Shown here in pieces: positions 417 through 17,592 of a stretch of DNA of 64,000 bases. The notes under the pieces were generated by a model, which did no database searches, had not been told where the DNA came from, and saw nothing but the letters and a program-made list of their open reading frames with translations. How positions within the stretch are numbered: the stretch's first letter is position 1; each line of letters opens with the position of its first letter. Made by a program: the position numbers and the translations under genes. This DNA comes from Pirellula staleyi DSM 6068. GTDB lineage: Bacteria > Planctomycetota > Planctomycetia > Pirellulales > Pirellulaceae. Where the stretch lies: positions 2,053-66,052 of the forward strand of contig CAMCMB010000036.1 of the NCBI GenBank assembly GCA_945875845.1, read 5' to 3'.

Positions 417-491
417 AGCTAACCAAAACAAGTTCAACTAGGGGCGAACAGGTCTGTTGTCGCAACGAATCAGCCATGGTACGATTTGGGA

Positions 492-944
492 ATGGCAGCA
501 AAAAAAGTGGAAAAGCAAATCGAAACGTCACCTCTATCCCGGTTGTCGCAAAACATTCGGGCGGCGCGACTCGCTGCTGGCTTAACTTTGGAGCAGTTAG
601 CGGGCGAATCGGGAATCTCCAAAACCTACCTCTGGGAACTGGAGAACGACGAGAGCGGCCAGAAGCGGCCATCGGCGGAAATACTACTTAAGGTTGCAAA
701 CATCCTTAAGACAACCATCGCAGATTTAATGGGGCTTCCGTCGGTCCAAGTCAACAAAACCAAAGTTGAAGTGAGTCCATCCCTAATCGAGTTCCGAGAC
801 ATGATGGTTAGGATCGAAACACCGCTATCAGATGAAGACCTCCATTCGCTGGCTTCAACTCGTTTTCGAGGTGGGCAGCCCACATCCAAAGAAGGCTGGT
901 ACGATCTCTACTCGGCATTGAAAAGAGCGACTGGAAGGAAATGA
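492..944 (+). CDS. XRE-family helix-turn-helix transcriptional regulator with C-terminal extension
   Basis: HTH_3-type motif LSQNIRAARLAAGLTLEQLAGESGISKTYLWELEND. The track ORF starts at TTG 486; the first ATG is at 492. The stop lies 1 nt before the ImmA start. Confidence 0.85.
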   Translation: MAAKKVEKQIETSPLSRLSQNIRAARLAAGLTLEQLAGESGISKTYLWELENDESGQKRPSAEILLKVANILKTTIADLMGLPSVQVNKTKVEVSPSLIEFRDMMVRIETPLSDEDLHSLASTRFRGGQPTSKEGWYDLYSALKRATGRK

Positions 945-945
945 A

Positions 946-1896
946 ATGCCGAGAAATTCTGGCTCTGTAAGATACCACGAACATGTAATGGCAATCATCG
1001 CGGAAATGGGGTTGGAAGATCCGCGAGAAGCAGTGCGCCAAAAAGCAAGGGTAATGCTAGGTAACCTGCTCCCACTTTTTCCTAACCCGCCGCCATTCAA
1101 CATGCAGGAAATTGCAAGTTGCATTGGACTGCATGCTTCCGATGAAGAACCCAGCTTTAGTGCAGACTCAGAGATTGCCCCCGATGGCGATGGCAATGTC
1201 GTACTACGTATTAACAAGAGTCGCCCAATAACTCGACAACGCTTTAGCATCGCACATGAAATTGGCCACACACTTTTCCCCGATTACCAACTCGCTGTGA
1301 GATGTCGCAAGGCGCATGATAAAAGATGGAATGACGATGATTTCCTGGAAACCCTCTGCGATGTCGCTGCGTCCGAATTCATGTTTCCATTGCCATGGTT
1401 TGAAAACTCCATTGCATCACTACAAATGACTGGCGAAGGGGTTGCTAGCTTGGCTGATGAGTACCAGGCGTCACGAGAAGCAACCGTACGAAGGCTCGTC
1501 GAATTGCACCCAGAACCGATGGCCGCAGTGTTCTTTAGCTGGAAACTGAAACCCGTCGAGCACAAGCAAGTTCGACGCAATGCGGAAAAGCCCTTTCTTT
1601 CCACGATCTTTCGTCCCGATGAGCCCGAAAAGAAGCTCCGCGTCGACTATCCCATCCTGAACGAATCGTTTCGCAATCACGTGCTTGACCACATACCGGT
1701 TCACAAATCGATTCCGAACGATGGTCCCATCTATCAAGCAGCGATGACACTGTCCCCGTGCGATGGAACTGCTGTCGTAAGTTTTGGGCGCATCGAAAAT
1801 GAGTACCACATTGTCGCACTACCAATCTACACCGATGAAGCCGACTTTGGACCGAACAACGCAAGTTCGGTTGTTGCATTGTTGAGGCCTATCTAG
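946..1896 (+). CDS. ImmA/IrrE-family (M78) zinc metallopeptidase
   Basis: HEXXH motif AHEIGHTLF (HEIGH at 1255-1269). About 170 aa follow the peptidase core, as in IrrE/CapP-type proteins. Classic pairing directly behind an XRE repressor. Confidence 0.85.
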   Translation: MPRNSGSVRYHEHVMAIIAEMGLEDPREAVRQKARVMLGNLLPLFPNPPPFNMQEIASCIGLHASDEEPSFSADSEIAPDGDGNVVLRINKSRPITRQRFSIAHEIGHTLFPDYQLAVRCRKAHDKRWNDDDFLETLCDVAASEFMFPLPWFENSIASLQMTGEGVASLADEYQASREATVRRLVELHPEPMAAVFFSWKLKPVEHKQVRRNAEKPFLSTIFRPDEPEKKLRVDYPILNESFRNHVLDHIPVHKSIPNDGPIYQAAMTLSPCDGTAVVSFGRIENEYHIVALPIYTDEADFGPNNASSVVALLRPI

Positions 1897-1901
1897 AGTA
1901 T

Positions 1902-4900
1902 GTGCTTTCATTATCCCCAACGATCAACGGCGAGCCCGAGCAGGTTGCACAATTGGAAATAATCGATAACATCAATCAACTTTTGGGCGACAACCTCAAA
2001 ACAACCATCGCTCCAAAATCGAAGCTTAAGATTGCCGCGTCGTGTTTTTCGATCTATGCGTTCGAATCGCTAAAGAAGGAACTCGAAAAAATCGAGTCCC
2101 TTGAGTTCATTTTCACGTCGCCAACGTTTGTTCCCAACGAAGTCACCGACAAGATCAAGAAGGAACGACGCGAGTTCTATATCCCAAAACTTGAACGCGA
2201 ACGCGGGTTCTACGGAACCGAATTCGAAATCCAACTCAAGAACAAGCTGACCCAACGAGCCATCGCCAAAGAGTGTGCTGAGTGGATGCGAAGGAAAGCT
2301 AAGTTTCGCTCCAATTCCGGCAAAGCTCCGATGCAGCAGTTTGTTTGTGTCCAAAACCCAACGTCCCAAGCCGTTTACTTGCCACTACATGGCTTCACCG
2401 CAGTTGATCTTGGCTACCAGCAAGGCAATGCTGTTTCGAACATCGTCAATAAGATTGACGAACCATCGATGACAGGGATTTATCTTGGATTATTCGACCA
2501 AATCTGGAAAGATCCTGAGAAGCTCCAAGACGTAACATCTAGTCTTTGCGACCACATTGCATCGCTCTATCAGGAAAACTCTCCCGAACGTATCTACTTC
2601 TTGATGCTTTACAACATCTTCAACGACTTCTTAGAAGATATCAGCGACGATGTTCTCCCCAACGACATGACGGGATATCAGGACAGTCTCGTCTGGAAAA
2701 AGCTGTTCAACTTCCAACGGGATGCTGCCACGGGAATCATCAACAAGTTAGAGACCTTCAACGGTTGCATTCTTGCGGACAGCGTGGGGCTTGGAAAAAC
2801 CTTCACCGCGCTCGCCGTTATCAAATACTACGAGCTTCGCAATCGTGGTGTGCTCGTTCTTTGCCCCAAGAAGCTGTCCGACAATTGGCTCACGTTTAAT
2901 CGCAACGTCAAGACAAATTTATTCGCCAAAGATCGATTCAACTATGACGTGCTGTGTCATACGGATCTTGGGCGAACTCGAGGCGAATCATTTGGCACTC
3001 GTCTCGATCAAGTCAACTGGGGCAATTACGACTTGGTCGTTATCGACGAATCGCATAACTTTCGCAATGCGGAAGCCTTCAATGAAAAGGAGACGCGATA
3101 CGACAAGCTTATGAATGCTGTCATTCGGGCAGGTGTCAAAACCAAAGTTCTGATGTTATCGGCTACCCCGGTCAATAATCGTTTCAACGATCTCAAGAAC
3201 CAACTCGCCCTTGCCTACGAGGGAGACACTGAAGCCATCAATCGCAAATTAGATACGACTCGCGACATTAGCGAGATCTTCCGACGTGCTCAGCAAGCCT
3301 TCAATGCATGGACTAAGTTGCCGGCAGATCAGCGAACCAGCGATGCGATTTTGCGGAGTCTCGATTTTGACTTCTTCAAGCTGCTTGATAGTGTCACAAT
3401 CGCGCGATCTCGACGTCACATTCAGACCTTTTACGATACTGCCGAAGCAGGCAAGTTTCCGGTTCGGCTTCCGCCACAATCCTATCGGTGTCCTCTGACT
3501 CATCGCGGTGACGTTCCCAACTTGAACGAAATCTACAACAGTTTGGCATCACTCACATTGGCAGTTTACGCTCCGGTAGCGTACATTCACCCAAGTCGAC
3601 TGCCGTTTTACGCAGAGCAATACGACACCAAATTCGAGAGCGGCAATCGCTTCCGTCAAATCGACCGAGAGCGAAGTTTGCAGAATCTGATGACGGTCAA
3701 CCTCTTGAAGCGACTTGAAAGCAGTATAGAAGCCTTCCGAATCACACTGTCAAAATTGCAGCGCGGTCACCGAAGTTTGCTGGTGAAGATTGAAAAGTTT
3801 CAGCGATCTGGCGTTTCGGATCGCGTATGCGATGCGGGCGTTGGCTACGGAAGCGGTGAGTACGACGAAGACGAGGTTCTTGACCTCGATGCTGTCACCA
3901 CTGGCAAAGTTCAAATCCGTCTTGAAGACATGGACCTGCCTTCGTGGAAAGACGATCTTCAGCGTGATCTGAAGGTCATTGACGAGCTACTAGCTGAAAT
4001 GCAGAAAGTGACGCCAAGGGACGACGCGAAATTGCAGCACTTGCTGGGTTACCTAAAAGGAAAATACGCGTCACCGATAAATCCCGGAAATCGCAAGGTC
4101 CTTATCTTCACTGCTTTCGCGGATACATCGGAATATCTTTACGAGCATGTTGCGCCAGCGATAGCAGAATATGCGGATGCTGCTGCAGGTACTGTCAATC
4201 ACACCGGCGGCCATACAGCCACTGTTTCGGGAACTTTCCCTGCAAGAAGTACGATTGTCGATGAAAGCGGTCGGCCACGACGCTACGACTTTCAATCACT
4301 ATTGACCCTGTTTTCGCCGCGTTCGAAAGAGAAATCGCTCATACTGCCAGACGAACCATCTGAGATCGACGTATTGATCGGCACCGATTGCATCTCCGAA
4401 GGGCAAAACCTGCAGGATTGCGACTGCGTTATCAATTACGACATTCATTGGAACCCAGTGCGAATCATCCAACGTTTCGGCCGCGTTGATCGGATTGGAT
4501 CGCCCAATGATTTCATTCAACTGGTCAACTATTGGCCGGACATCACACTCGATGAATACATCAATCTAAAAGAGCGGGTGGAAAACCGCATGGTAATAGC
4601 GGACATGACCGCGACTGGTGATGACAATGTTCTACTCGATGGCAATCCAGCCAACAGTGAAGTTGCATATCGCAAGGAGCAGCTTCGTCGTCTGCAAGAC
4701 GAAGTCATCGAAATGGAGGACATTAAAACGGGTGTCTCCATTACAGACCTGGGCCTAAACGATTTTCGTATGGATTTGCTCGCCTATGTCAACGCAACTG
4801 GCGATTTAGCCAACGTTCCCAATGGAATGCATAGCGTTGTACCCGCCGAACCGGATCGTGGCTTGCATCCGGGCGTGATCTTCACACTTCGCAATCGAGA

Positions 4901-5282
4901 TTCCAGCGTAAACGTGGGTGGGCATAATCGGTTGCACCCATACTATATGGTCTACGTCGGCAGCGATGGCCGGGTCGTGATGGATTACACCGAAGTCAAA
5001 CGTCTGCTCGATCTAGCACGTGCCGCCTGCAAGGGACGGTCGAAGCATGTCGCGGAAGTCTGCAAACCGTTCAACGATGCGACAGATGATGGGCGGAATA
5101 TGACTTTTTATAGCGATCTGCTCGACGTTGCCATCGGCAGCATCATCGACCGAAAAGAAGAGTCCGACGTCGAAAGTCTGTTTTCCGGCGGACCAACAAC
5201 AGCTCTCGAGGGGAACATCAAGGGTCTTGATGACTTCGAACTGATTGCTTTCCTGGTCATCTTTGACCCCAAGCGAGGGTAG
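1902..5282 (+). CDS. SNF2-family (superfamily 2) helicase, 1126 aa, with uncharacterised N-terminal (~280 aa) and C-terminal (~330 aa) regions
   Basis: Motif I LADSVGLGKTFTA (GLGKT 2787-2801), motif II VVIDESHNFRN (DESH 3045-3056), motif III LMLSATPVNN, motif V GQNLQDCDCVINYDIHWNP, motif VI QRFGRVDRIGS. GTG start 5 nt after the ImmA stop. Confidence 0.9.
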   Translation: MLSLSPTINGEPEQVAQLEIIDNINQLLGDNLKTTIAPKSKLKIAASCFSIYAFESLKKELEKIESLEFIFTSPTFVPNEVTDKIKKERREFYIPKLERERGFYGTEFEIQLKNKLTQRAIAKECAEWMRRKAKFRSNSGKAPMQQFVCVQNPTSQAVYLPLHGFTAVDLGYQQGNAVSNIVNKIDEPSMTGIYLGLFDQIWKDPEKLQDVTSSLCDHIASLYQENSPERIYFLMLYNIFNDFLEDISDDVLPNDMTGYQDSLVWKKLFNFQRDAATGIINKLETFNGCILADSVGLGKTFTALAVIKYYELRNRGVLVLCPKKLSDNWLTFNRNVKTNLFAKDRFNYDVLCHTDLGRTRGESFGTRLDQVNWGNYDLVVIDESHNFRNAEAFNEKETRYDKLMNAVIRAGVKTKVLMLSATPVNNRFNDLKNQLALAYEGDTEAINRKLDTTRDISEIFRRAQQAFNAWTKLPADQRTSDAILRSLDFDFFKLLDSVTIARSRRHIQTFYDTAEAGKFPVRLPPQSYRCPLTHRGDVPNLNEIYNSLASLTLAVYAPVAYIHPSRLPFYAEQYDTKFESGNRFRQIDRERSLQNLMTVNLLKRLESSIEAFRITLSKLQRGHRSLLVKIEKFQRSGVSDRVCDAGVGYGSGEYDEDEVLDLDAVTTGKVQIRLEDMDLPSWKDDLQRDLKVIDELLAEMQKVTPRDDAKLQHLLGYLKGKYASPINPGNRKVLIFTAFADTSEYLYEHVAPAIAEYADAAAGTVNHTGGHTATVSGTFPARSTIVDESGRPRRYDFQSLLTLFSPRSKEKSLILPDEPSEIDVLIGTDCISEGQNLQDCDCVINYDIHWNPVRIIQRFGRVDRIGSPNDFIQLVNYWPDITLDEYINLKERVENRMVIADMTATGDDNVLLDGNPANSEVAYRKEQLRRLQDEVIEMEDIKTGVSITDLGLNDFRMDLLAYVNATGDLANVPNGMHSVVPAEPDRGLHPGVIFTLRNRDSSVNVGGHNRLHPYYMVYVGSDGRVVMDYTEVKRLLDLARAACKGRSKHVAEVCKPFNDATDDGRNMTFYSDLLDVAIGSIIDRKEESDVESLFSGGPTTALEGNIKGLDDFELIAFLVIFDPKRG

Positions 5283-5284
5283 TT

Positions 5285-5983
5285 GTGAACAAAGCAGGGG
5301 GAACACTATTCGCTTGGCCGAAGCAGGCCGAGTTTGGCCGCAAATTGAATAAGGAACTATTCTACGCGGGTGCTCGCAATAATCGAAAGCTAAAAGAATT
5401 GTTCACGGATCAAGTTGCGCGTGTCGCATGGAAGTACAAGCTCGCGTCGTCGACTCTCAATACGCCAGCGACCGTCGACGTTCCCGAGATCGAAGTTATC
5501 CAGATTGATGTTAGCGGAACAGATTTTGATCCAGCTATCCTCATCGCGATCGACAAAGCAATTCCAAATCCCACTATTCACGAAATCCATAGTGCTGGGC
5601 GTGTGAAGCAATCCGCGGCCTATAAGCGAGCCAGTGAGTCGGATGCAAACGCCTGGGTCATCAGTCATTACCTCTCCAGTGACTGGCAACCCGTGGATGC
5701 TGTTCGAATGCCGCTGCCAACATCTCTTAACCTGGGCATACTCTACGCCAGTCTGCTTCGAACGATGATCGATCTACTGCCGCAAAATGGGGAACCGTTG
5801 CGATCCCATGTAGAGCGTCATGGACAAGTCCTCCAACTTCGTCGTGATGCAGAACGCATTAGTCAAAAGATGAATGCTGAAAAGCAGCTCAATCGAAAAG
5901 TCGAGTGGAACTCGCAACTTCGATCCGTCAATCAAGAAATTCAAAAACTTACAAGAACTCCATTGCAGGAATCCAATGCCTGA
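5285..5983 (+). CDS. DUF4391-like protein (function unknown)
   Basis: 232 aa. The pattern FAWPKQAEFGRKLNKELFY...VARVAWKYKLASSTLN...EIEVIQIDV...LIAIDKAIPNP matches my recollection of DUF4391. GTG start 2 nt after the helicase stop; the stop overlaps the methylase start (ATGCCTGA). Confidence 0.6.
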   Translation: MNKAGGTLFAWPKQAEFGRKLNKELFYAGARNNRKLKELFTDQVARVAWKYKLASSTLNTPATVDVPEIEVIQIDVSGTDFDPAILIAIDKAIPNPTIHEIHSAGRVKQSAAYKRASESDANAWVISHYLSSDWQPVDAVRMPLPTSLNLGILYASLLRTMIDLLPQNGEPLRSHVERHGQVLQLRRDAERISQKMNAEKQLNRKVEWNSQLRSVNQEIQKLTRTPLQESNA

Positions 5984-7844
5984 AAAGCTAAAAATGCATA
6001 GCCCGGATTTGATCGCTTCCAATATCGATTGCATTGCGGAATTGTTTCCGAACTGTGTCACTGAAGCGGCAGGCGAAAACGGCCTAGTGACACGATTGAT
6101 TGACTTTGATTTACTTCGCCAAGAGTTGTCCGGAGACATCGTCGAGGGACCGCTTGAGCGCTATCATCTCAACTGGCCTGGTAAGCGAGAGGCGATGCTG
6201 GCAGCTAACGCCCCAATCGCAAAAACGCTACGTCCCTGTCGCGAAGAAAGCGTCGACTTCGACACTACAAAAAATTTGTTCATCGAAGGCGATAATTTGG
6301 AAGCGTTGAAGCTATTGCAGGAGACTTATCTCGGCAAAGTCAAGATGATCTACATCGACCCACCATACAATACGGGAAATGACTTTATCTACGACGATGA
6401 CTTTGCAGAAGATGCGGATGCCTTTCTTTTGCGATCAGAGCAAGTAGAGGAATCGGGCGTAAGGCTCATCGCAAATAGTAACGCAAATGGGCGTTTTCAT
6501 TCCGACTGGCTTTCGATGATGCTTCCACGGCTAAAGTTAGCTCGAAATGTTCTGCGTGAAGACGGATGCATCTTCATTTCGATCGATGACAACGAGATAT
6601 CCAGTCTTCGTAAGTTGTGTGATGAAATCTTTGGGCCATCCAACTTTATTGCGACGATTGTTTGGCAAAAACGTTATGTATCGAACGTCACTGCGAAATG
6701 GCTTTCAGACATGCACGACTATGTACTTGTCTACGCGAAACAAAGTGATTTATTGACAATCAATGATTGGAAACGCACAACCGAACAGGAATCCGCATAC
6801 AGAAATCCAGACGATGACCCGCGCGGTGTATGGCGTGCTCAAGATCTTTCAGCGAGTAAACCGTATGAAGCAGGGAAATTTACAATTACAGGACCAAATG
6901 GAGATTTCTTCACTCCACCTCCAAATCGCTATTGGAGATGTAATCGCGAACAGTTCGACCGTTGGTGCAAAGACAAACGAATATGGTGGGGTGTGAACGG
7001 TGATGCTAGGCCAATGCTAAAGGCATTCCTTTCAGAATCAACACGTGGAATTAAGCCGCATACTTGGTGGGGGCATGAATTTGCCGGTCACAACAAGGAG
7101 GCCACCCTCGAGTTAAAGGCTTTGTTCGATGGCGACGCTCCGTTTGACACGCCAAAGCCCGTGAAATTAATGAAGAAAATTCTGGAACTTGTGACAAGTG
7201 AAGGTGACATTGTAATGGACTTTTTTGCCGGTTCCGCGACTTTCGCTCAAGCAGTTCTTGAAATGGGAAATGCTCGTTTCATTGCCGTTCAGGCTGGTGA
7301 GATGGTTCAAGGTATCGATTCGTCGCCGAAATTCCAAACCATTGCTGAAGTAGCAAAAGAGAGGATTCGCCGGATATGTTCATCGCAGTCTGATAAAAAC
7401 CGAATGTTTGCGGAAGATTATTACAGTGGCTTCCGTGTCCTAAAAATCGATTCGTCCAACATGAAGGATGTTTACTATTCACCACAAGATACTTCGCAGG
7501 CGATGCTAAGTGGATTGGTCGACAACATCAAGCCTGATCGGACTGGGGAGGATTTGCTGTTCCAAGTCCTACTCGACTGCGGCGTTGACCTGGGACTTCC
7601 CCTGAAGCGAGAAACGCTCGACAATTGTGAAGTGTTCATCGTTAATGAAAGCAAGCACACGGTTCCCGATCTGATCGCCTGCTTCGAGGTAGATTTGCCT
7701 GAATCGCTTGTCACAACCATCGCTGACAAAAAGCCGCTGCGAGCCGTGTTTCGCGATCAATGCTACGCGACCGACGCTGAAAAAATCAACGTAGAACAAA
7801 TCTTCAAGCAACTATCGCCCAACACACAATTAAAGAGCCTCTAA
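5976..7844 (+). CDS. Site-specific DNA methyltransferase, beta-class N6A/N4C (Type III Mod-like, N6_N4_Mtase family)
   Basis: Motif IV IYIDPPYNTGNDF (DPPY 6357-6368) precedes motif I VMDFFAGSATFAQAV, which is the beta-class order. The track ORF starts at 5874, but ATG 5976 (MPEKLKMHSPD...) overlaps the upstream stop by 8 nt and is the likelier start. Confidence 0.9.
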   Translation: MPEKLKMHSPDLIASNIDCIAELFPNCVTEAAGENGLVTRLIDFDLLRQELSGDIVEGPLERYHLNWPGKREAMLAANAPIAKTLRPCREESVDFDTTKNLFIEGDNLEALKLLQETYLGKVKMIYIDPPYNTGNDFIYDDDFAEDADAFLLRSEQVEESGVRLIANSNANGRFHSDWLSMMLPRLKLARNVLREDGCIFISIDDNEISSLRKLCDEIFGPSNFIATIVWQKRYVSNVTAKWLSDMHDYVLVYAKQSDLLTINDWKRTTEQESAYRNPDDDPRGVWRAQDLSASKPYEAGKFTITGPNGDFFTPPPNRYWRCNREQFDRWCKDKRIWWGVNGDARPMLKAFLSESTRGIKPHTWWGHEFAGHNKEATLELKALFDGDAPFDTPKPVKLMKKILELVTSEGDIVMDFFAGSATFAQAVLEMGNARFIAVQAGEMVQGIDSSPKFQTIAEVAKERIRRICSSQSDKNRMFAEDYYSGFRVLKIDSSNMKDVYYSPQDTSQAMLSGLVDNIKPDRTGEDLLFQVLLDCGVDLGLPLKRETLDNCEVFIVNESKHTVPDLIACFEVDLPESLVTTIADKKPLRAVFRDQCYATDAEKINVEQIFKQLSPNTQLKSL

Positions 7845-7914: not shown

Positions 7915-9606
7915 ATGACTCGAACTGAAACAGAATTGCAAAAACTGCTAATCCAGCTCATTTCAGATTGGGAGAGCGAAGTCGTGGAGTTCAAGAGCGT
8001 TGGAGACTCGTATTCTACGTCCGATATCGGCAAGTACTTGACCGCATTATCAAACGAAGCAAATTTGCGTGAAGTTGAGACGGCGTGGTTGGTTTTCGGT
8101 GTCGACAACAAGACGCGTCAGATCGTTGACTCGGACTACCGTCGCGATCGTGCTAGACTCGAAGGACTAAAGCATCAGATGACCGAGGGAAGTTCTCCTT
8201 CCATTTGTTTTCGCGAGATCCACGAAATCGCCGTCGCAGGCAAACGGGTGCTGATGTTCGAGATACCCGCCGCCCCACGTGGTATCGCAATTAGCTGGAA
8301 TGGACACTTCTATGCACGCAGTGGGGAAAGCCTAGGACCGCTTTCCATCGTAAAGCAAGACGAGATCCGCGGTCAAACCTTGCAGACGGACTGGACTGCC
8401 GCTGTGGTCTCTGAAGCGTCGCGAGCAGATCTGTCCGATGCGGCTGTTTCGCAGGCACGCGCTCGATTCGCTCTTCGTCACGCAAATCAGTTTACAAACG
8501 ACGAAATCGAAGCCTGGGACGATGCAGCGTTTCTGGATCGAGCCGGTCTGACAATCAACGGCATGATTACTAGATCGGCTCTGTTACTCGTCGGTAAACC
8601 GGATTCGGTCCATCTCCTCAGCCCATATCTCGCTCAACTAGTTTGGAAGCTGGTTGGCGTGGAAGCTGGCAATCAGATTTTTACGCCACCCTACTTGCTT
8701 GCGACGAGTGCTCTCTATGAAAAGGTGCGCAACGTGCAACTGAGGATACTTCCAGCCGATTCGTTAGTCGCGATTGAAGTTGCTAAATACGACCAAAAGA
8801 TTGTTCTTGAATCGCTGCACAATTGCATAGCCCACCAAGACTACCGTCTCGGGGCACGCGTGGTCGTAACGGAGATGATCGATCGCTTGGTCTTGGAGAA
8901 TTCGGGATCGTTTGTCGATGGTGAGCCGCTGGATTACCTGTCGGGTCATAAAACGCCTAGGTTTTATCGCAATCCGTTTTTGATGCAAGCGATGACACGG
9001 CTGAACATGATCGATACGATGGGCTATGGAATTCACAGAATGTTCGTTGGGCAAGCGAAACGTTATTTCCCGCTTCCGGACTATGACCTATCGGAATCGG
9101 GAACGGTTAGACTCACCATCCACGGGGCGATTGTTGATCCTGCATACTCGCGGGTTTTGATTGAGAACACCGATTTGCCTCTGCAAGATGTGTTCGCTCT
9201 TGATCGCGTTCAAAAGCAACTACCCATTGATGATGTAGCCACGAAACGATTGCGTCGCGCAGGATTGATCGAAGGAAGGCGTCCGAACATCCATATTTCC
9301 GGCAACGTAGCATCGGCAACAGATCGACGAGCCGAGTACATTCGAAATCGCCATCAAGATGACATTCATTACAAGCGACTGATCTTAGATTTCCTAAGTC
9401 GGTTTGATTCTGCTGGCAGGGAGGATATCGATAAAATGCTATTGAAGAACCTAAGCGACGTTTTGACGGAGGACCAGAAGCGAAACCGGGTGCGTAACCT
9501 GCTTCAGTCCATGCGTCGGGACGGGCTGATCGAGAATCTTGGCCCGCGGGTTCAACCGACCTGGTCGCTGACAACCATCGGGCGTTCCGCATTAACTAAA
9601 TCATGA
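7915..9606 (+). CDS. AlbA_2 (Schlafen-like divergent AAA) + HATPase_c_4 + C-terminal winged-helix protein; putative ATP-binding DNA-binding regulator
   Basis: N-terminus ESEVVEFKSVGDSYSTSDIGKYLTALSNEANL...AWLVFGVDNKTRQIV is AlbA_2-like. The middle region ESLHNCIAHQDY...LVLENSGSF is HATPase_c_4-like. C-terminus LLQSMRRDGLIENLG is wHTH-like. Confidence 0.7.
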   Translation: MTRTETELQKLLIQLISDWESEVVEFKSVGDSYSTSDIGKYLTALSNEANLREVETAWLVFGVDNKTRQIVDSDYRRDRARLEGLKHQMTEGSSPSICFREIHEIAVAGKRVLMFEIPAAPRGIAISWNGHFYARSGESLGPLSIVKQDEIRGQTLQTDWTAAVVSEASRADLSDAAVSQARARFALRHANQFTNDEIEAWDDAAFLDRAGLTINGMITRSALLLVGKPDSVHLLSPYLAQLVWKLVGVEAGNQIFTPPYLLATSALYEKVRNVQLRILPADSLVAIEVAKYDQKIVLESLHNCIAHQDYRLGARVVVTEMIDRLVLENSGSFVDGEPLDYLSGHKTPRFYRNPFLMQAMTRLNMIDTMGYGIHRMFVGQAKRYFPLPDYDLSESGTVRLTIHGAIVDPAYSRVLIENTDLPLQDVFALDRVQKQLPIDDVATKRLRRAGLIEGRRPNIHISGNVASATDRRAEYIRNRHQDDIHYKRLILDFLSRFDSAGREDIDKMLLKNLSDVLTEDQKRNRVRNLLQSMRRDGLIENLGPRVQPTWSLTTIGRSALTKS

Positions 9607-9816: not shown

Positions 9817-12800
9817 ATGAAAATTCAATTCAAAGTCCAAGATTACCAAACCGACGCAGTCCGGGCTGTCGTCGACTGTTTCGCCGGTCAGCCGCTCATT
9901 GCGACGCCGGATTATGAGATTGACCCTGGCGTAAATAAGAAACGAATCAAGCCGGTTGGACAGTTTACCCAACAAGACCTTCTCGACTCGCTCAAATTCG
10001 AGGGCTTTCGCAACGCCGATCTTCGTTTAACCATTTCTCAGCTGCTTGCAAACATTCAACAGATACAGCTCGAGCAAAACATCCCACAGTCTATATCGCT
10101 AGTTCCAAGCCAGTCATGCAAACTCAATCTCGATATCGAGATGGAAACCGGTACTGGCAAAACCTACTGCTACATCAAGACGATGTTCGAACTGCATGAG
10201 AAGTACGGATGGAATAAATTCATTGTTGTTGTCCCGAGCATTGCGATTCGCGAAGGGGTTCAAAAGTCATTCGAGATCACCGCTGAGCATTTTCTGCAAC
10301 AGTATGGTAGGCAGGCACGCCACTTTACTTACGACAGCAAGCAATTGCACGAATTGGAGAGCTTTTCATCTAACGCCGGTATTAATGTGATGATCATCAA
10401 CGCACAGGCGTTCAATGCATTCAAGGAGGACGCCGCGAACAATGCGGCCCGGATCATGTTCTCGCAACGAGATGACTTTCAATCTCGTCGTCCCATCGAT
10501 GTTCTAAAGAAGAACAAACCGATTCTGATCCTCGATGAACCGCAACGTATGGTGGGAACACAGACAGTAAAAGCCTTGGCTCAGTTCGATCCGCTTATGA
10601 TCCTGCGATACTCGGCGACACATAAGGTGGAGCACAATAAAATCTACCGGCTAGACGCTTTGGATGCCTACAACCAAAAACTGGTAAAGAAGATCGCGGT
10701 TCGCGGAATCGCGACGAAAGGGCTCAAGGGCACAAACGGCTATCTTTACCTAGAAAGCATCCGCCTGAGTAAAAGCAAACCGCCAGTTGGGGTTTTGGAA
10801 ATCGAACAGAAAACCGCGAGCGGAATTAAGCGGATTCGGAAATTGGTTAGTAAGAATACGAACCTCTTTGTCGAGTCGGGTGAACTAGATCAATACCAAG
10901 GCTTTGTCGTGGCCGACATCGACGCTCGCGGAGTGGAGGGCTTCGGCGAAGGATACATCGAGTTTACCAACGGAGAGCGTCTGACGGTCGGCACCGCTTG
11001 TGGCGATACGAATGAGGATACACTTCGTCGGCTTCAAATTCGCGAATCGATTAAAGCTCACTTTGAGAAGGAGCAAGAGCTTTATCCTAAGGGAATCAAG
11101 GTTCTCTCGCTTTTCTTCATCGACACTGTAGCCAAGTATCGCCAATACGACAAAGATGGCAACAAGCTTCTAGCGGACTATGGCCGATTTTTCGAGGACG
11201 AGTATGCAAAGATCCGGGAAGAATTTCGGACGTTGTTCGCTGAAGAAGCAAAGTACCAGTCCTACCTGGACGGCATAGATACCGCTCATACGCACGATGG
11301 CTACTTCTCGATCGACAAAAAGGGGCGATTGGTTGATCCTGAAGTTAAAAAGTCGGGAGACACCAAAGGTGAGACCGACGATGTCGATGCCTATGACCTT
11401 ATCCTAAAGGATAAAGAAACGCTTTTGTCCTTGCCTACGCAAGACGATGATGACCTGTCTCGACGGAGAAAGAATGTACGGTTCATCTTCTCGCACTCAG
11501 CACTTCGCGAGGGATGGGACAATCCGAATGTATTCGTGATCGGCATGCTCAAGCCGACTGACTACGAGGGGTCAACTGTCACGCGTCGCCAAGAGGTCGG
11601 CCGAGGACTGCGACTATGCGTTGATGCGACGGGCCAAAGGATTGACGACAAAGCAATTGTCCACGATGTCAACGTTCTAACTGTTGTCGCCAACGAGAGC
11701 TTCCAAGAGTTTGTAACCAAGCTTCAAGGCGAAATGCGAGAGTCTCTGTCAGCTCGCCCTCGATATGCGAGTGAAGTGTATTTTACAGGCAAACTATTGC
11801 GAACAGAGACAGGGGACAAGACAGTCGACGCCAAGATGGCTTCTCAAATCTTTTTTTACCTTGTTCAAAACGGGTATACGGATTACGACAAACGCATTAC
11901 TTCGAAGTACCACGATGCAAAACAGAATGGGGTTCTTGCCGAACTTCCTGAGTCACTGAAGCCTTTCGCCGAACCGATATTCAAACTCATCGATAGCGTT
12001 TTCGACGATTCGAAATTGCCAGGCTTCGGCAACGGCCGAAGCCCGAAGGGAAACCCTATCAATGCGAAAAACTTGGCTCGCAAAGAGTTTCAAGATCTGT
12101 GGAATAGAATCAATCATAAAGCCGTATATGTGGTTGATTTTGAAACAGATGAACTCATCGTCAACTGCGTCGGGACCCTCAACGCAGAATTGAACGTGTC
12201 AAAGCTTCGATACGAGGTCCACCGCGGCGTTCAAAAAGACGTTAACACGGTAGATGATCTCGATAACGGTACTGCGTTCGAGGTAAACGGGAACCAAACC
12301 GACATTGTCGATTCACCTGTCTCGACCGATATTCGTTACGACTTAGTTGGAAAGCTCAGTGAGGCGACACAACTAACTCGGAAGACAGTAGTCAGTATCT
12401 TGTCACGAATAAGTCCCATCACTTTTGAAATGTTTCGCATAAATCCCGAAGAATTTCTCGCCAAGGCTGCTAGCAAGATAAACGAGCAAAAAGCGACAAT
12501 CATCATCGAGCATTTGGTTTACAACCCACTCGATGGACAGCATTACACGGACATTTTCACCGCAGACAAGAAGGCTGACATATCCAGTGCATACGAAGCG
12601 CAGCGACACGTCTTCGACTATGTAATCACCGATAGCAAAAATGAACGTACCTTTGTCGAGACGCTAGACAAATCAACCGAAGTCGTTGTTTACGCCAAGC
12701 TCCCCAGGGCATTCTCAATACCAACGCCAGTCGGTAACTACAACCCCGACTGGGCGGTTGCATTCGAGCAAGACAAAGTCAAGCATGTTTTCTTCATCGC

Positions 12801-12954
12801 GGAAACCAAGGGCAGCATGAACTCGCTCGAACTGAATAAGATCGAGACCGCGAAAATCGCATGCGCCCGGAAGTTCTTCGCGAAGATTACGTCGGAACAA
12901 GTCAAATATGATGTAGTGGATAGCTACGCGACACTAATGGGACTGGTGATTTAG
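9817..12954 (+). CDS. Type III restriction enzyme Res subunit (SF2 helicase-ATPase + C-terminal PD-(D/E)xK nuclease)
   Basis: Walker A LDIEMETGTGKTYC and DEAH-like PILILDEPQRM. C-terminal YNPDWAVAF...VFFIAETKG, with D at 12748-12750 and E-T-K at 12802-12810. Confidence 0.85.
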   Translation: MKIQFKVQDYQTDAVRAVVDCFAGQPLIATPDYEIDPGVNKKRIKPVGQFTQQDLLDSLKFEGFRNADLRLTISQLLANIQQIQLEQNIPQSISLVPSQSCKLNLDIEMETGTGKTYCYIKTMFELHEKYGWNKFIVVVPSIAIREGVQKSFEITAEHFLQQYGRQARHFTYDSKQLHELESFSSNAGINVMIINAQAFNAFKEDAANNAARIMFSQRDDFQSRRPIDVLKKNKPILILDEPQRMVGTQTVKALAQFDPLMILRYSATHKVEHNKIYRLDALDAYNQKLVKKIAVRGIATKGLKGTNGYLYLESIRLSKSKPPVGVLEIEQKTASGIKRIRKLVSKNTNLFVESGELDQYQGFVVADIDARGVEGFGEGYIEFTNGERLTVGTACGDTNEDTLRRLQIRESIKAHFEKEQELYPKGIKVLSLFFIDTVAKYRQYDKDGNKLLADYGRFFEDEYAKIREEFRTLFAEEAKYQSYLDGIDTAHTHDGYFSIDKKGRLVDPEVKKSGDTKGETDDVDAYDLILKDKETLLSLPTQDDDDLSRRRKNVRFIFSHSALREGWDNPNVFVIGMLKPTDYEGSTVTRRQEVGRGLRLCVDATGQRIDDKAIVHDVNVLTVVANESFQEFVTKLQGEMRESLSARPRYASEVYFTGKLLRTETGDKTVDAKMASQIFFYLVQNGYTDYDKRITSKYHDAKQNGVLAELPESLKPFAEPIFKLIDSVFDDSKLPGFGNGRSPKGNPINAKNLARKEFQDLWNRINHKAVYVVDFETDELIVNCVGTLNAELNVSKLRYEVHRGVQKDVNTVDDLDNGTAFEVNGNQTDIVDSPVSTDIRYDLVGKLSEATQLTRKTVVSILSRISPITFEMFRINPEEFLAKAASKINEQKATIIIEHLVYNPLDGQHYTDIFTADKKADISSAYEAQRHVFDYVITDSKNERTFVETLDKSTEVVVYAKLPRAFSIPTPVGNYNPDWAVAFEQDKVKHVFFIAETKGSMNSLELNKIETAKIACARKFFAKITSEQVKYDVVDSYATLMGLVI

Positions 12955-12957
12955 GAA

Positions 12958-13722
12958 ATGAACCTTCAATTGTTTGACGAGACGTTTGAGCATTTGCCCT
13001 CTTCGCCGATCGTGGAGTCGGTTATTCAATGGACAGCGAGAGCAAGCGTTGCCGCGAATGATACCACTTGGCATAATCGCTTTTCGGAACTACTGCCGGA
13101 GTTTCCGAAGGCTCAGCCTGTGCACTGGCAATCAATCGAAACGATGATCGATTCTGACGGGTCGTCTCAGCAGACGGTGAATCGGCCTTGGATTGGCTTG
13201 CGTCTGGAGAGCGAAGACAGCACATGGATCGTGCAAGCTGATTGGCAGGGCGTGATTCTCAGTCGCTTGAGCCCCTACGTTGGTTGGACAGAATTCTCGA
13301 CGCTTGGAATCAAGGTTTGGAAGTCGTTCCTTGCGTGTACTCAACCGACAGAGATCCAAAAGCTCGGCGTTCGATCGATCAATCAAATCCCTATCGAATC
13401 TTTTGACGACGTACGTTATTATCTTAAACACCCGCCTGAGTGCTTAGATGACGCAGAGCTACCGGCAATGGGGTTTATGTACCAAAGTTTGCATCGAATC
13501 CCAAACCATCCTTATCAGGTAAACGTAATCCGCACTATCCCTCCCAAGAATTTGGGAACCACCGTACCGCCTAGCCTCATTGTAGATATTGATGCTATGA
13601 CAACTGATGGTCACTTAGAAGTGGGTAGTACCCAGGAACACTTTAAGGCCCTAAAATGGGTTAAGGACAAGACGTTTTTCAACTTAATTACCGATAAAGC
13701 AATCGAGATGTTTCGAAAATGA
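12958..13722 (+). CDS. Hypothetical protein, TIGR04255-like
   Basis: 254 aa. SPIVESVIQW near the N-terminus, then GVRSINQIPI, SLIVDIDAMT and C-terminal FFNLITDKAIEMF resemble the conserved blocks I recall for TIGR04255. Starts 3 nt after the Res stop. Confidence 0.5.
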   Translation: MNLQLFDETFEHLPSSPIVESVIQWTARASVAANDTTWHNRFSELLPEFPKAQPVHWQSIETMIDSDGSSQQTVNRPWIGLRLESEDSTWIVQADWQGVILSRLSPYVGWTEFSTLGIKVWKSFLACTQPTEIQKLGVRSINQIPIESFDDVRYYLKHPPECLDDAELPAMGFMYQSLHRIPNHPYQVNVIRTIPPKNLGTTVPPSLIVDIDAMTTDGHLEVGSTQEHFKALKWVKDKTFFNLITDKAIEMFRK

Positions 13723-14171
13723 CAAGGTTCACCACGGGGTTTAGCGACGCGGCTCAAATGGCAAGTCGATACTTGGTTGAGCAAGTTAACGGTATGCGTC
13801 GATCTCAGACTTTCGGTCTGGACAGCGAGCTTCGAGAGGAACTAGGAGACGTTTGGAGCGAATGCCAGACAGATAACTGGGATGGGTACAAAGCGTTGCC
13901 AGTGTCTCAGGATACCTTGCAACAAGTCTATGAATTGCTTGAGGAGCTTCCGGATGATTTTCCAGCTCCAAGCTTGTCTGCTGATCCAGATGGTGCTTTA
14001 GCCCTTGAGTGGTATACTTCCAAAGACCGGCAAATCTCCGTTAGTATCATTGATGGTGAGATTCATTATGCCGCGAAATTGGGCTCCGAGCGCCACCATG
14101 GCAACTATTTGCTGGTCGATGGCTGGCCGAAGTCGTTGTTTTCTTTGATTCAGAAAATTGCTGGTCGATGA
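13719..14171 (+). CDS. Hypothetical protein (150 aa)
   Basis: ATGA overlap with both the upstream and the downstream gene. Protein-like composition, including NWDGYKALPVS...PAPSLSADPDGALALEW. I recognised no domain. Confidence 0.6.
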   Translation: MTRFTTGFSDAAQMASRYLVEQVNGMRRSQTFGLDSELREELGDVWSECQTDNWDGYKALPVSQDTLQQVYELLEELPDDFPAPSLSADPDGALALEWYTSKDRQISVSIIDGEIHYAAKLGSERHHGNYLLVDGWPKSLFSLIQKIAGR

Positions 14172-14614
14172 TTGACGAAAACGATGTTCCCGATATCGAC
14201 GGCCGCGAAGAGCTTTCACGATGCGTCGTTTACAGCAAACATATCCGAGCTCCGAAGCCTGACGGTTCAGAACTTGGACGAGTTAAACCAAACGCATTCG
14301 TTCCGCATCCGTATGACGATTTGTCTGTAAACAGCCACGTGCAATCGACTGATGCTGAAATTTGGCTTCTTTGCCGCAACGTTGCTTTGAAGCAACAAAA
14401 GACGTTGTATGGCCGAGCAACAGTACTCGCAAGTGACTTTCAGTCGAAGAAGTTGACAATACAACCTGATCCCATTCGAGCTGACGAAGACAGCGAATTC
14501 CCCAACCCAAATCACGCGATCGTCGTAGGCTGGCCAGCTGAGAAGTCTGCCCAGATCGCAATCGCGCAAGACATTGCGGATAGTTGTAGGTTCTCTGAGC
14601 CGCCTAGCAACTAG
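14168..14614 (+). CDS. Hypothetical protein (148 aa)
   Basis: 4-nt ATGA overlap with the preceding gene. Plausible globular sequence (ELSRCVVYSKHIR...VKPNAFVPHPYDDLSVNSH...NPNHAIVVGWPAEKSAQIAIAQDIA). I prefer it over the antisense ORF 14267-14854. Confidence 0.6.
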   Translation: MIDENDVPDIDGREELSRCVVYSKHIRAPKPDGSELGRVKPNAFVPHPYDDLSVNSHVQSTDAEIWLLCRNVALKQQKTLYGRATVLASDFQSKKLTIQPDPIRADEDSEFPNPNHAIVVGWPAEKSAQIAIAQDIADSCRFSEPPSN

Positions 14615-14854
14615 CAATACAGCCGATGGAGTAGATTGCGTGGAGCTGGCGACCGGATCTGCACGGCTTACTTCGAACTCTATCCAAAGTCGTTTTTGTC
14701 CATCATCACGAGTAAGTAACACGTCGGCGCGTGCGGAATAACCGAGCACAGGTTGCCACTCTGTGTCTAGAACGTCAACTTCGTGTGTGCAGGTCCATCC
14801 TGCCGGACACGCAGCGGCGAAACGCTCTTGGAGAAATCCGGTTAAGCTTCCCAA
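14615..14854 (-). pseudogene. 5' remnant of a disrupted gene at the island's right junction
   Basis: The first ~70 aa of ORF 14267-14854(-) read like real protein (MGSLTGFLQERFAAACPAGWTCTHEVDVLDTEWQPVLGYSARADVLLTRDDGQKRLWIEFEVSRADPVA). The remainder is antisense to CDS 14168-14614 and is Cys/Arg/Leu-rich. Confidence 0.35.
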
Positions 14855-15001
14855 TTTAGGTTCCTCGCTTGGCTTTGATGTAAGAACGCACTAACACGTT
14901 GGTGAGAACGTTGGGGTGACGCTGCATGTGAGTGATTTCGTTCCATTTTATATTATCCATTTCCTCTCTCAATTCATGTGCTGGGTACTAGCCCTAGTAT
15001 T

Positions 15002-15211
15002 TCAATTAGCCTTCACCCTGGTTGGCCACTTCCTCGTTGAGGTAAGTTGCGGCGAATTCGCGAATCGCGTTTGCAGGATGTCTGATGCGGATACACCAAG
15101 ATCTCGAAGAATATCCAACGACTGCTGCGTGGTTGTTACGACCTCCTTCTTGGTGACACCCGCTTCGGTCCAAAACCGAACGGTCCTTATACTAGAATCC
15201 GCAAGTTGATT
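15002..15211 (-). pseudogene. Start-less fragment resembling the second half of a MerR/excisionase-type HTH protein
   Basis: Hand translation gives ..LADSSIRTVRFWTEAGVTKKEVVTTTQQSLDILRDLGVSASDILQTRFANSPQ..*. This is 69 open codons bounded by an upstream in-frame TGA, with no ATG or GTG before the HTH-like part. Confidence 0.25.
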
Positions 15212-15282
15212 TCAACAAAGAAAGAGACTTACGCGGAGGTGCCGAGAACGCGGGGTTCGTTGTAGGAATCTAAACACTTTAT

Positions 15283-16880: not shown

Positions 16881-17592
16881 GCGCTAGCCTGGGCTGTTAA
16901 AAATCTGGTATTGACACTACATTCCGACAGATCATTTTTGTTCCTTTCGCTGGGAAGTAAAGTAGTGAAACCGCAACGTGAAGTTTAGGGTTTTTCTCTC
17001 CCCTTCTCCTCCTGTAATCAGGAGGAGAAGGGGCCGGGGGGATGAGGAGGTTGGAGCTAGACATGAAGTGGCAAGCCCAAGACGATTTCGCCAAACACCT
17101 ACGCCGAGCCTCCACGCCCGCGGAATATTTGATGTGGCAAGTTGTTCGTAATCGACAACGATGCCAAGCCAAGTTTCGACGACAACATAAACTCGGGCCT
17201 TACGTCTTGGACTTTTTCTGCCCTGAAGCGAAGCTTGCTGTCGAATGCGATGGACTACCGCACTTCACTCTGGAAGGAATCAAGAAGGATCGAATTCGAA
17301 CCCAATGGCTCAATCAACAAGGTATCGAAGTAATTAGGTTTACGAGTCATGAGATCGAGAACGACACGCAACGGGTTATGTTTGCGATCGACGTCGCCTT
17401 AAAAAAGCACATCAAGCAGGACCAACCTCCTCATCCCCCAACCCCTTCTCCTCCCGAGGAGGAGAAGGGGAGTTAGAACATCAGCTTCGCGATGTAGTAG
17501 CGGCGTTCGAATGGACTTGCCGATTGGAACAAAAACTGCGCAACCAAAAGCCGTGCCCATACCAGATTTTTAACAGCCCAGCGCTAGCCCTC
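16881..17592. repeat. Nested inverted-repeat cassette enclosing the DUF559 ORF (possibly a MITE-like mobile cassette)
   Basis: Outer inverted repeat: TGGGCTGTTAAAAATCTGGTAT at 16890-16911 versus its perfect reverse complement at 17559-17580. Inner ~55-bp inverted repeats at 16998-17054 and 17422-17472, each containing its own hairpin CCCCTTCTCCTCC..GGAGGAGAAGGGG. Confidence 0.6.
17042..17476 (+). CDS. DUF559 (Vsr-like endonuclease fold) domain protein
   Basis: AEYLMWQVVRNRQRCQAKFRRQHKLGPYVLDFFCPEAKLAVECDG...QGIEVIRFTSHEI. The N- and C-terminal codons (MRRLE.., ..PSPPEEEKGS) lie inside the inner inverted repeats. Confidence 0.8.
   Translation: MRRLELDMKWQAQDDFAKHLRRASTPAEYLMWQVVRNRQRCQAKFRRQHKLGPYVLDFFCPEAKLAVECDGLPHFTLEGIKKDRIRTQWLNQQGIEVIRFTSHEIENDTQRVMFAIDVALKKHIKQDQPPHPPTPSPPEEEKGS

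Follow-up and report, generated by a model that had tools for sequence, protein, structure and literature searches.

The g1–g2–g3 cassette and its conservation

The stretch of DNA analyzed here (64,000 nucleotides of Pirellula staleyi DSM 6068, contig CAMCMB010000036.1, hereafter the window) carries three consecutive plus-strand genes, g1, g2 and g3, directly downstream of the res gene of a type III restriction–modification (R–M) system. An earlier note, made from the sequence alone, had described this trio as a TIGR04255-like gene followed by two small genes of unknown function, and had proposed that it is co-transcribed with res and acts as an accessory sensor/effector or as a toxin–antitoxin (TA)-like module. 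The junctions are exactly as described: the TAG stop codon of res (12952–12954) is followed by three nucleotides, GAA, and then by the ATG of g1 (12958), and an ATGA overlap links g1 to g2 as well as g2 to g3. No promoter or terminator signal around the trio exceeds the shuffled background, so that transcription in this genome probably continues from res into the trio. Searches of the same region detected no Rfam RNA, tRNA or flanking repeats.

The trio recurs far beyond Pirellula. A scan of one genome per species, keyed on the g3 peptide motif only, gave 80 loci, 79 of which are distinct (one duplicates L007), and trio membership was called in these 79 loci by local hidden Markov model (HMM) searches of all open reading frames (ORFs). 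The loci span at least 12 phyla and are found in Planctomycetota, Cyanobacteria, Acidobacteriota, several proteobacterial classes (beta, gamma and delta groups) and Verrucomicrobiota, and further in Desulfuromonadales, Geomonas, Syntrophus, Spirochaetales, Nitrospirales, Hydrogenedentota, Sumerlaeota and Binatia. In 70 of the 79 loci, g1, g2 and g3 lie in the same order on one strand; the nine exceptions comprise five loci cut by contig ends and four that lack g1. The spacing is tight: among the 70 complete loci, g2 and g3 overlap by 4 nt in 41 and are at most 9 nt apart in 65, while g1 and g2 overlap by 4 nt in 24. As g3 was the sole key used to retrieve the loci, this synteny is strong evidence that the three genes constitute one functional unit, and it answers in the affirmative the question, raised in the earlier note, of whether the trio travels together. 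All three genes are under purifying selection, the ratio of nonsynonymous to synonymous substitution rates (dN/dS) against the L014 orthologs being about 0.07 for g1, 0.07 for g2 and 0.11 for g3. Given these low ratios and a same-order recurrence far beyond chance, the three ORFs are real genes.

The flanking ORFs of the 79 loci were clustered, the families being confirmed by Pfam and R–M linkage being scored within 6 kb. Few flank families recur, and the largest of them are R–M families, namely HsdM (10 loci), HsdS (8 loci) and two HsdR groups (4 loci each). Type I hsd genes are present within this range in 13 of the 79 loci, with the trio co-stranded in 12. In five loci, the trio is inserted between hsd subunit genes: (i) L033 (Burkholderiales), L060 (a cyanobacterium) and L080 (Chromatiales) display the order hsdM–hsdS–trio–...–hsdR, all on the same strand; (ii) L062 and L066 (Planctomycetota) display the order hsdR–trio–hsdS. 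The top Pfam families among the 140 ORFs immediately adjacent to the trio are Methylase_S (7), N6_Mtase (5), Eco57I (5), HsdM_N (4), TGT (3) and ResIII (3), with GmrSD_N found twice; the remaining adjacent families are singletons or pairs of housekeeping genes.

R–M turnover around a conserved trio

Word-indexed homology searches returned 12–24 clusters per protein, all at least 54% identical and all from Pirellula-type planctomycetes. In the more distant of these relatives (57–68% identical), the same 254/150/148-residue trio stands alone, behind its own upstream intergenic region. Such solo loci (L001–L007) lack a window-like Res and have unrelated neighborhoods, which contain flagellar genes and a PSCyt1–WD40 gene, or an ABC transporter, a Fer2_BFD gene and a convergent SNF2 gene, or a PAP2 gene. 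In the closest relatives, by contrast, the trio does lie behind a type III res gene, but this gene differs from one relative to the next. The trio of L008–L010 is 89–99% identical to that of the window and starts 4–5 nt after the res stop codon, whereas the corresponding Res is only about 60% identical. In L014–L016, Res, which is preceded by a Fic gene, is 34% identical to its window counterpart, and a relic of the last 35 window-like res codons (74% identity; positions 4869–4973 of L014) persists just upstream of g1. This relic points to the replacement of an R–M cassette beside a retained trio. The relatives of the window lie behind three different type III operons, and the trio remains 71–99% identical across them while Res drops to 60% or 34%.

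A finer comparison of the window with L008 gave a mosaic picture. The DNA identity amounts to 87% over positions 12337–15252 but drops to about 65% in the remainder of res, and the synonymous divergence (dS) is 0.96 for g1 against 0.02 for g2 and g3. These contrasts indicate that recombination has shuffled the R–M alleles that surround a conserved block comprising the 3' end of res and the trio. Recombination breakpoints can be placed at 12337, inside res, and at the g1/g2 boundary near 13719. On the other side, the homology block ends 22 nt past the g3 stop codon, at a truncated minus-strand gene: a tblastn search with a full-length homolog (L039:482–1456) matches only positions 14854–14636, with 60% identity, and since the rest of this gene of about 330 codons is absent from the window, the fragment marks the right edge of the block. 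Its translation is 98% identical in L008. The full-length homolog has no Pfam match; it comes from a metagenome-assembled genome of Spirulina, where it precedes another trio by about 0.9 kb. A further decayed res–trio junction is present on an independent metagenomic contig, as a chimeric ORF of 185 residues (P0134) in which the C-terminus of a Res is joined to a short piece of g1 and to the N-terminus of g3.

Since the trio is conserved while Res diverges, since solo loci exist and since no window-like type III Res was found within 6 kb of the trio in any of the 79 loci, the flush placement behind a type III res gene is a lineage-specific feature and not a functional requirement. Consistent co-occurrence with type III Res/Mod is found neither across the 79 homologous loci nor in the solo ones, and the idea that the trio is the distal accessory of a res operon, put forward in the earlier note, is not borne out as a general rule. 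The co-transcription proposed in that note is likely in this genome; tight coupling to res is not general. Mobility of the trio is supported by the unrelated flanks of the Pirellula-type relatives, the mosaicism between the window and L008, the truncated gene found 22 nt past g3 and a slightly lower GC content (0.47–0.50 in the island described below versus 0.51–0.55 in the housekeeping flank). Considered together with the synteny, these comparisons show that the three genes form a conserved and laterally mobile operon, an autonomous cassette.

In the window, the trio closes a defense island of about 14 kb, in which all the genes upstream of the trio are carried by the plus strand (Table 1); it is placed after the last R–M gene and not between R–M genes. 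The Schlafen gene is itself embedded, since it lies inside the type III mod–res pair. CapH/CapP-type pairs control cyclic oligonucleotide-based antiphage signaling systems (CBASS) and other defense operons; the CapH-like/CapP-like pair at the left end of the island may therefore govern the whole array, including the trio.

Table 1. Features of the window in and around the defense island
Feature	Position	Strand	Basis or remark
CapH-like helix-turn-helix gene	486–944	+	
CapP-like M78 (IrrE/ImmA) peptidase gene	946–1896	+	
SNF2 helicase gene	1902–5282	+	
DUF4391 gene	5285–5983	+	
Type III mod gene	5874–7844	+	
Schlafen AlbA_2 + HATPase_c_4 gene, between mod and res	7915–9606	+	No PADLOC match
Type III res gene, 1045 residues	9817–12954	+	PADLOC REase_III (E = 4e-294); Pfam ResIII and RE_endonuc
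Main part of res, swapped allele	9817–12336	+	Divergence from L008
3' end of res (~200 codons), with the RE_endonuc domain	12337–12954	+	Inherited jointly with the trio among the closest relatives
g1, first gene of the cassette, TIGR04255-family protein, 254 residues	12958–13722	+	ORF call; NCBIfam
g2, NWDG-domain protein, 150 residues	13719–14171	+	ORF call; ATGA overlaps on both sides
g3, alpha/beta protein of a large unannotated family, 148 residues	14168–14614	+	ORF call; AlphaFold2 model
Truncated gene of ~330 codons, N-terminal 73 codons; right edge of the block	14636–14854	-	tblastn
DUF559 (Vsr-like endonuclease) gene	17042–17476		Follows the trio at a distance of 2.4 kb, after a pyrroloquinoline quinone (PQQ) beta-propeller gene

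The three proteins and their variants

Profile searches bear out the assignment of g1 to TIGR04255. The match to the NCBIfam model is full-length and well above the curated cut-off (E = 2.7e-29; 102.8 bits for a cut-off of 30; protein residues 13–252, model positions 2–251 of 252). TIGR04255 is a family without known function, and a full-text literature search for this name returned no papers. g1 has no match in Pfam, PHROG or the PDB, the last being searched also with a profile of 42 g1 sequences, and no internal duplication or repeat was detected in the protein. Its dN/dS ratio lies between 0.06 and 0.07, and nine residues are invariant (P17, E20, Y107, W110, W121, R139, N142, D210 and F240).

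The two small proteins are unknowns, as stated in the earlier note: neither g2 nor g3 matches anything in Pfam, NCBIfam, PHROG or the PDB, whether searched singly or as a profile. The Foldseek searches suggested in the same note did not change this picture for the PDB, so that, of the checks it proposed, the HMM searches recovered TIGR04255 for g1 and the structural ones left the g2 and g3 models without a PDB match. In the AlphaFold2 model of g2, the predicted local distance difference test score (pLDDT) averages 73; it is below 50 for residues 1–34 and stays low up to about residue 60, and block means are at least 83 from residue 61 onwards. The confident part comprises a helix, a five-stranded beta-meander and a C-terminal helix. 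According to this model, the N-terminal ~55 residues of g2 are probably disordered or helical, and they precede a conserved beta-meander domain with an NWDG motif. The best Foldseek match of the g2 model in the PDB was not significant (E = 0.05, TM-scores not exceeding 0.33). The NWDG domain is also found outside the trio, since three more g2-like ORFs lie downstream of the trio in L082 (4112–9626); they are interspersed there with a YhcG/DUF1016 nuclease gene and with an ORF of 516 residues bearing Fic-like motifs.

g3 belongs to a large family. When its alignment was used in an exhaustive profile search against representatives of 50% identity clusters, 859 proteins were retrieved at E ≤ 1e-3, 224 of them at E ≤ 1e-10. 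Almost all of these proteins stand alone and have a length of about 92–233 residues, and every source name seen was 'hypothetical protein'. Among 77 aligned g3 sequences, H116 is invariant and E14, R18, F44, P46, S53, R56, L80, G82, R83, L96, P123 and A133 are at least 90% conserved; the invariant histidine is part of the core motif NPNHAxxxGWP. The AlphaFold2 model (pLDDT 84, predicted TM-score 0.78) is that of a six-stranded alpha/beta protein, and a Foldseek comparison of this model with the PDB and BFVD gave nothing significant (best E = 0.4, TM-scores not exceeding 0.38). The ADP-ribosyltransferase (ART), Tpt1 and HIT folds, which had been considered on the basis of the motif, were dropped; for the ART fold, the best matches, none of them significant, were to KptA (TM-score 0.37–0.38, E > 2.5) and to AvrPphF ORF2 (TM-score 0.26, E = 0.8). 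Note that four relatives of 228–233 residues (P0070, P0109, P0169 and P0192) are extended at the C-terminus by about 90 conserved, beta-rich residues; this part has a look reminiscent of an oligonucleotide/oligosaccharide-binding (OB) fold, but has no PDB match by profile search and is left unassigned.

Decayed copies of the trio are common. Only g2 is intact in L011–L013, where g1 and g3 are truncated, and the same holds for L094, whose g1 carries an internal deletion and whose g3 is interrupted by a nonsense codon at position 115; in L086, all three genes are damaged. Other loci differ in composition. In two of the four loci that lack g1, a gene of another type is found upstream of g2, namely a TIR-domain gene (4573–5565) that ends 22 nt before g2 in L097 and an HNH endonuclease gene (3816–4442) located 115 nt upstream of the g2–g3 pair in L059. 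L032 has, alongside a canonical trio, a second and divergent module with a TIGR04255 gene and an NWDG-domain gene (10653–12369), whose third ORF starts with 'FRRVP...PSVLRS' and in this respect resembles the third gene of a variant from Ralstonia. The latter lies at the very end (34.5–36.4 kb of 36.6 kb) of an unverified prophage record (Ralstonia phage YO139_2, L019): a TIGR04255 gene is linked by an ATGA overlap to a g2 homolog (hhalign probability 89%, E = 2.6e-6), and the third gene shares an NPxHA motif with g3 (E = 1.2e-3). As a DUF4123 gene, encoding a type VI secretion system adaptor, follows this variant, the stretch may be host DNA at the edge of the prophage. More distant TIGR04255 genes occur on one plasmid each of Crinalium and Thermus, in the latter case near genes for a prokaryotic Argonaute, VapBC and CRISPR. 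The small genes that follow them are unrelated to the trio: they were considered as g2 and g3 homologs and found not to be homologous.

A candidate defense cassette and its counterparts

We propose, with about an even chance of being right, that the trio is a stand-alone anti-phage or abortive-infection cassette that becomes embedded in R–M loci. The arguments for this candidate system are its hsd neighbors and its embedding between them, the type III operons that precede the trio in relatives of the window, the synteny and translational coupling of its genes, its mobility, its modular variants, the matches to the phage defense candidate PDC-M32 that are described below and the decay pattern. 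From the sequence comparisons we infer a defense function and a role for each gene, which can be worded as follows. The cassette, an autonomous mobile operon that repeatedly lodges inside or next to R–M operons, would not be a subunit of the R–M enzyme. g3 would be the enzymatic effector and would act on a phosphate-bearing substrate, for example a nucleic acid or a nucleotide, as suggested by its invariant histidine and its conserved arginine, serine and glutamate residues. g2, made in a fixed ratio with g3 owing to translational coupling, would keep g3 inactive; this stoichiometric neutralization is suggested by the coupling itself, by the disordered N-terminus of g2 and by the fact that g2 is the only intact gene in the decayed loci L011–L013 and L094. 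Finally, g1 would be an exchangeable input or output module tying the g2–g3 pair to an infection cue, given that a TIR or an HNH gene occupies its slot in variants without g1.

Several observations weigh against the proposal. Linkage to R–M genes, which the earlier note had asked to survey, exists in part only: the type I neighbors and the five embedded loci speak for it, but about 84% of the loci have no R–M gene within 6 kb, and many direct neighbors are housekeeping genes (tRNA synthetases, TGT, NadA, MurJ). The TIR and HNH genes next to the g2–g3 pairs could be mere neighbors. The fold of g3 yields no catalytic precedent in the PDB or BFVD, and g2 has no DNA-binding domain recognizable with Pfam, unlike the antitoxins of classical type II systems. 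As for vehicles, the g3 family has no relatives in the viral contigs of IMG/VR, tblastn searches with g2 and g3 found no credible homolog among 72,556 plasmids, and the plasmid collection yielded no more than two TIGR04255 proteins, both of them distant and encoded beside unrelated partners. Tblastn searches of phages with g2 and g3 gave no real matches either; an Acinetobacter match proved spurious, as it falls inside an integrase gene. Lastly, none of the three proteins is homologous to a validated defense protein, and the PADLOC matches, which concern a candidate system, have E values around 1e-4 and partial coverage.

A selfish addiction module would share several of these properties. According to this explanation, which we regard as unlikely, g3 is a toxin, g2 its antitoxin and g1 a third component, and post-segregational killing stabilizes the host island in the absence of any defense role. 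The tight and widely conserved g2–g3 coupling, the small size of the genes, their sporadic distribution in variable contexts, the survival of g2 alone in decayed loci and its disordered N-terminus are all compatible with it. Against it, plasmids commonly carry addiction modules but yielded no credible g2 or g3 homolog, a DNA-binding domain is missing from g2, a conserved third gene of 254 codons is unusual for a TA pair and the recurrent neighbors are R–M genes.

The roles could also be reversed, with g1 as the effector and g2–g3 as a conserved sensor/regulator pair that is wired to different effectors. TIR and HNH proteins, whose genes take the slot of g1 in L097 and L059, are both classic defense effectors, TIGR04255 proteins pair with unrelated small partners on the Crinalium and Thermus plasmids, and the g2-like segment corresponds to the C-terminal part of the 375-residue PDC-M32A, which suggests that a variable N-terminal module can be fused to the g2 domain. 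However, only 4 of the 79 loci lack g1, adjacency could be coincidental in these, the enzyme-like His/Arg signature is found in g3 and not in g1, and g1 does not match PDC-M32A, so that this assignment appears improbable to us.

A non-defense accessory, involved for instance in a stress response or in the modification of nucleic acids or nucleotides and tolerated in R–M loci as in a genomic sink, seems quite unlikely. Such an accessory would account for the housekeeping nature of most neighbors, for the lack of a link to phages or viral contigs and for the recurrence of tRNA-related neighbors (class I tRNA synthetases, and TGT in three loci), although the three TGT cases, all acidobacterial, may represent one orthologous site. 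It fits poorly with a sporadic, lateral distribution over at least 12 phyla without any conserved metabolic partner, with same-orientation embedding inside type I operons, with the TIR and HNH variants and with frequent pseudogenization. Least of all do we favor the view that the trio is a dedicated accessory of the type III R–M system, i.e. a sensor, effector or regulator working only with Res/Mod: the 3–5 nt gaps after res, the permanence of the window-clade trios behind a type III res gene even after R–M replacement, with the relic kept in L014–L016, and the inheritance of the res 3' end and the trio as one block argue for it, but it is made very unlikely by the absence of window-like Res within 6 kb of the trio in the 79 loci, by the solo loci with their own upstream regions, by the divergence of Res behind a conserved trio and by the embedding of the same trio in type I systems elsewhere.

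If the trio is a defense system, it adds a widespread family that is not captured by current annotation tools, with about 860 g3 sequence clusters and at least 12 phyla, among which are many environmental lineages poorly served by screens centered on Escherichia coli. It would also extend guilt-by-embedding from type I R–M, bacteriophage exclusion (BREX) and defense island system associated with restriction–modification (DISARM) loci to type III R–M, and provide the first functional context for the TIGR04255 family; its putative effector, g3, has no structural or sequence precedent. A more far-reaching version, to which we attach a small probability, is that the cassette is a hitherto unrecognized, phylum-spanning, three-component immune module in which g3 combines a new fold with a new His/Arg-based activity. 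This module would guard R–M systems in the manner of PrrC, though unrelated to it, firing when a phage disables the R–M enzyme next to it, and its portable g2–g3 core could also be wired to TIR or HNH genes instead of the TIGR04255 gene.

Among known systems, the closest is PDC-M32, to which the only matches in a defense database belong (PADLOC): g2 matches PDC-M32A weakly (E = 4e-4, positions 270–328 of 375) and g3 matches PDC-M32B weakly (E = 6e-4, positions 13–93 of 123). The Ralstonia pair matches the same two models, and 9 of the 77 g3 relatives match PDC-M32B, with a best E value of 5e-7. PDC-M32 (CAS_00128, FAM_01821>>FAM_00608) is a two-gene cassette with 98 occurrences and one of 145 untested 'phage defence candidates', which were derived from cassettes embedded in type I R–M, BREX and DISARM loci (Payne et al. 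2024, bioRxiv 10.1101/2024.01.29.577857). Both the gene order, A then B, and the embedding in R–M, seen here with type I hsd genes in the 13 loci, are shared, and in its five embedded loci our cassette takes the kind of position on which Payne et al. based their candidates, i.e. between known defense-system genes on the same strand in at least one case. The differences are that the cassette has three genes instead of two, a form kept in 70 of the 79 loci, that it has a separate TIGR04255 gene, whose product has no match to PDC-M32A, and that the g2 match is confined to a short segment instead of covering most of the ~375 positions of PDC-M32A. The g3 match to PDC-M32B points to remote homology and not to family-level membership. 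The cassette would thus be at most a remote, three-gene relative of PDC-M32, and PADLOC v2 would not call it.

The position of the trio in L033, L060 and L080, between hsdS and hsdR on the same strand, recalls that of prrC in the EcoprrI type I R–M locus, which is organized as hsdM–hsdS–prrC–hsdR (Payne et al. 2024, bioRxiv 10.1101/2024.01.29.577857). By analogy, this position suggests a possible 'guard of the R–M system' logic. The trio shows no sequence or domain similarity to PrrC and no PADLOC PrrC match. PrrC is a single anticodon nuclease fused to an ABC ATPase and is almost only found embedded, whereas the cassette consists of three small genes that mostly have no R–M gene within 6 kb.

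The resemblance to type II or tripartite TA systems is incomplete, but a TA-like g2–g3 pair, in line with the TA-like module of the earlier note, is plausible. The g2–g3 pair is an adjacent, co-oriented and translationally coupled pair of small genes, with sporadic distribution, a disordered region in the upstream partner and retention of the putative antitoxin, g2, in decayed loci. On the other hand, the pair comprises neither a DNA-binding antitoxin nor a recognized toxin family, as judged from Pfam, NCBIfam, PADLOC and PDB folds, g3 being unlike the toxin families of the first three, and plasmids hold no credible homolog of either gene. Finally, the distant TIGR04255 members of the Crinalium and Thermus plasmids and of the Ralstonia record also precede one or two small genes, as g1 does, but among their partners only that of Ralstonia shows homology to g2.

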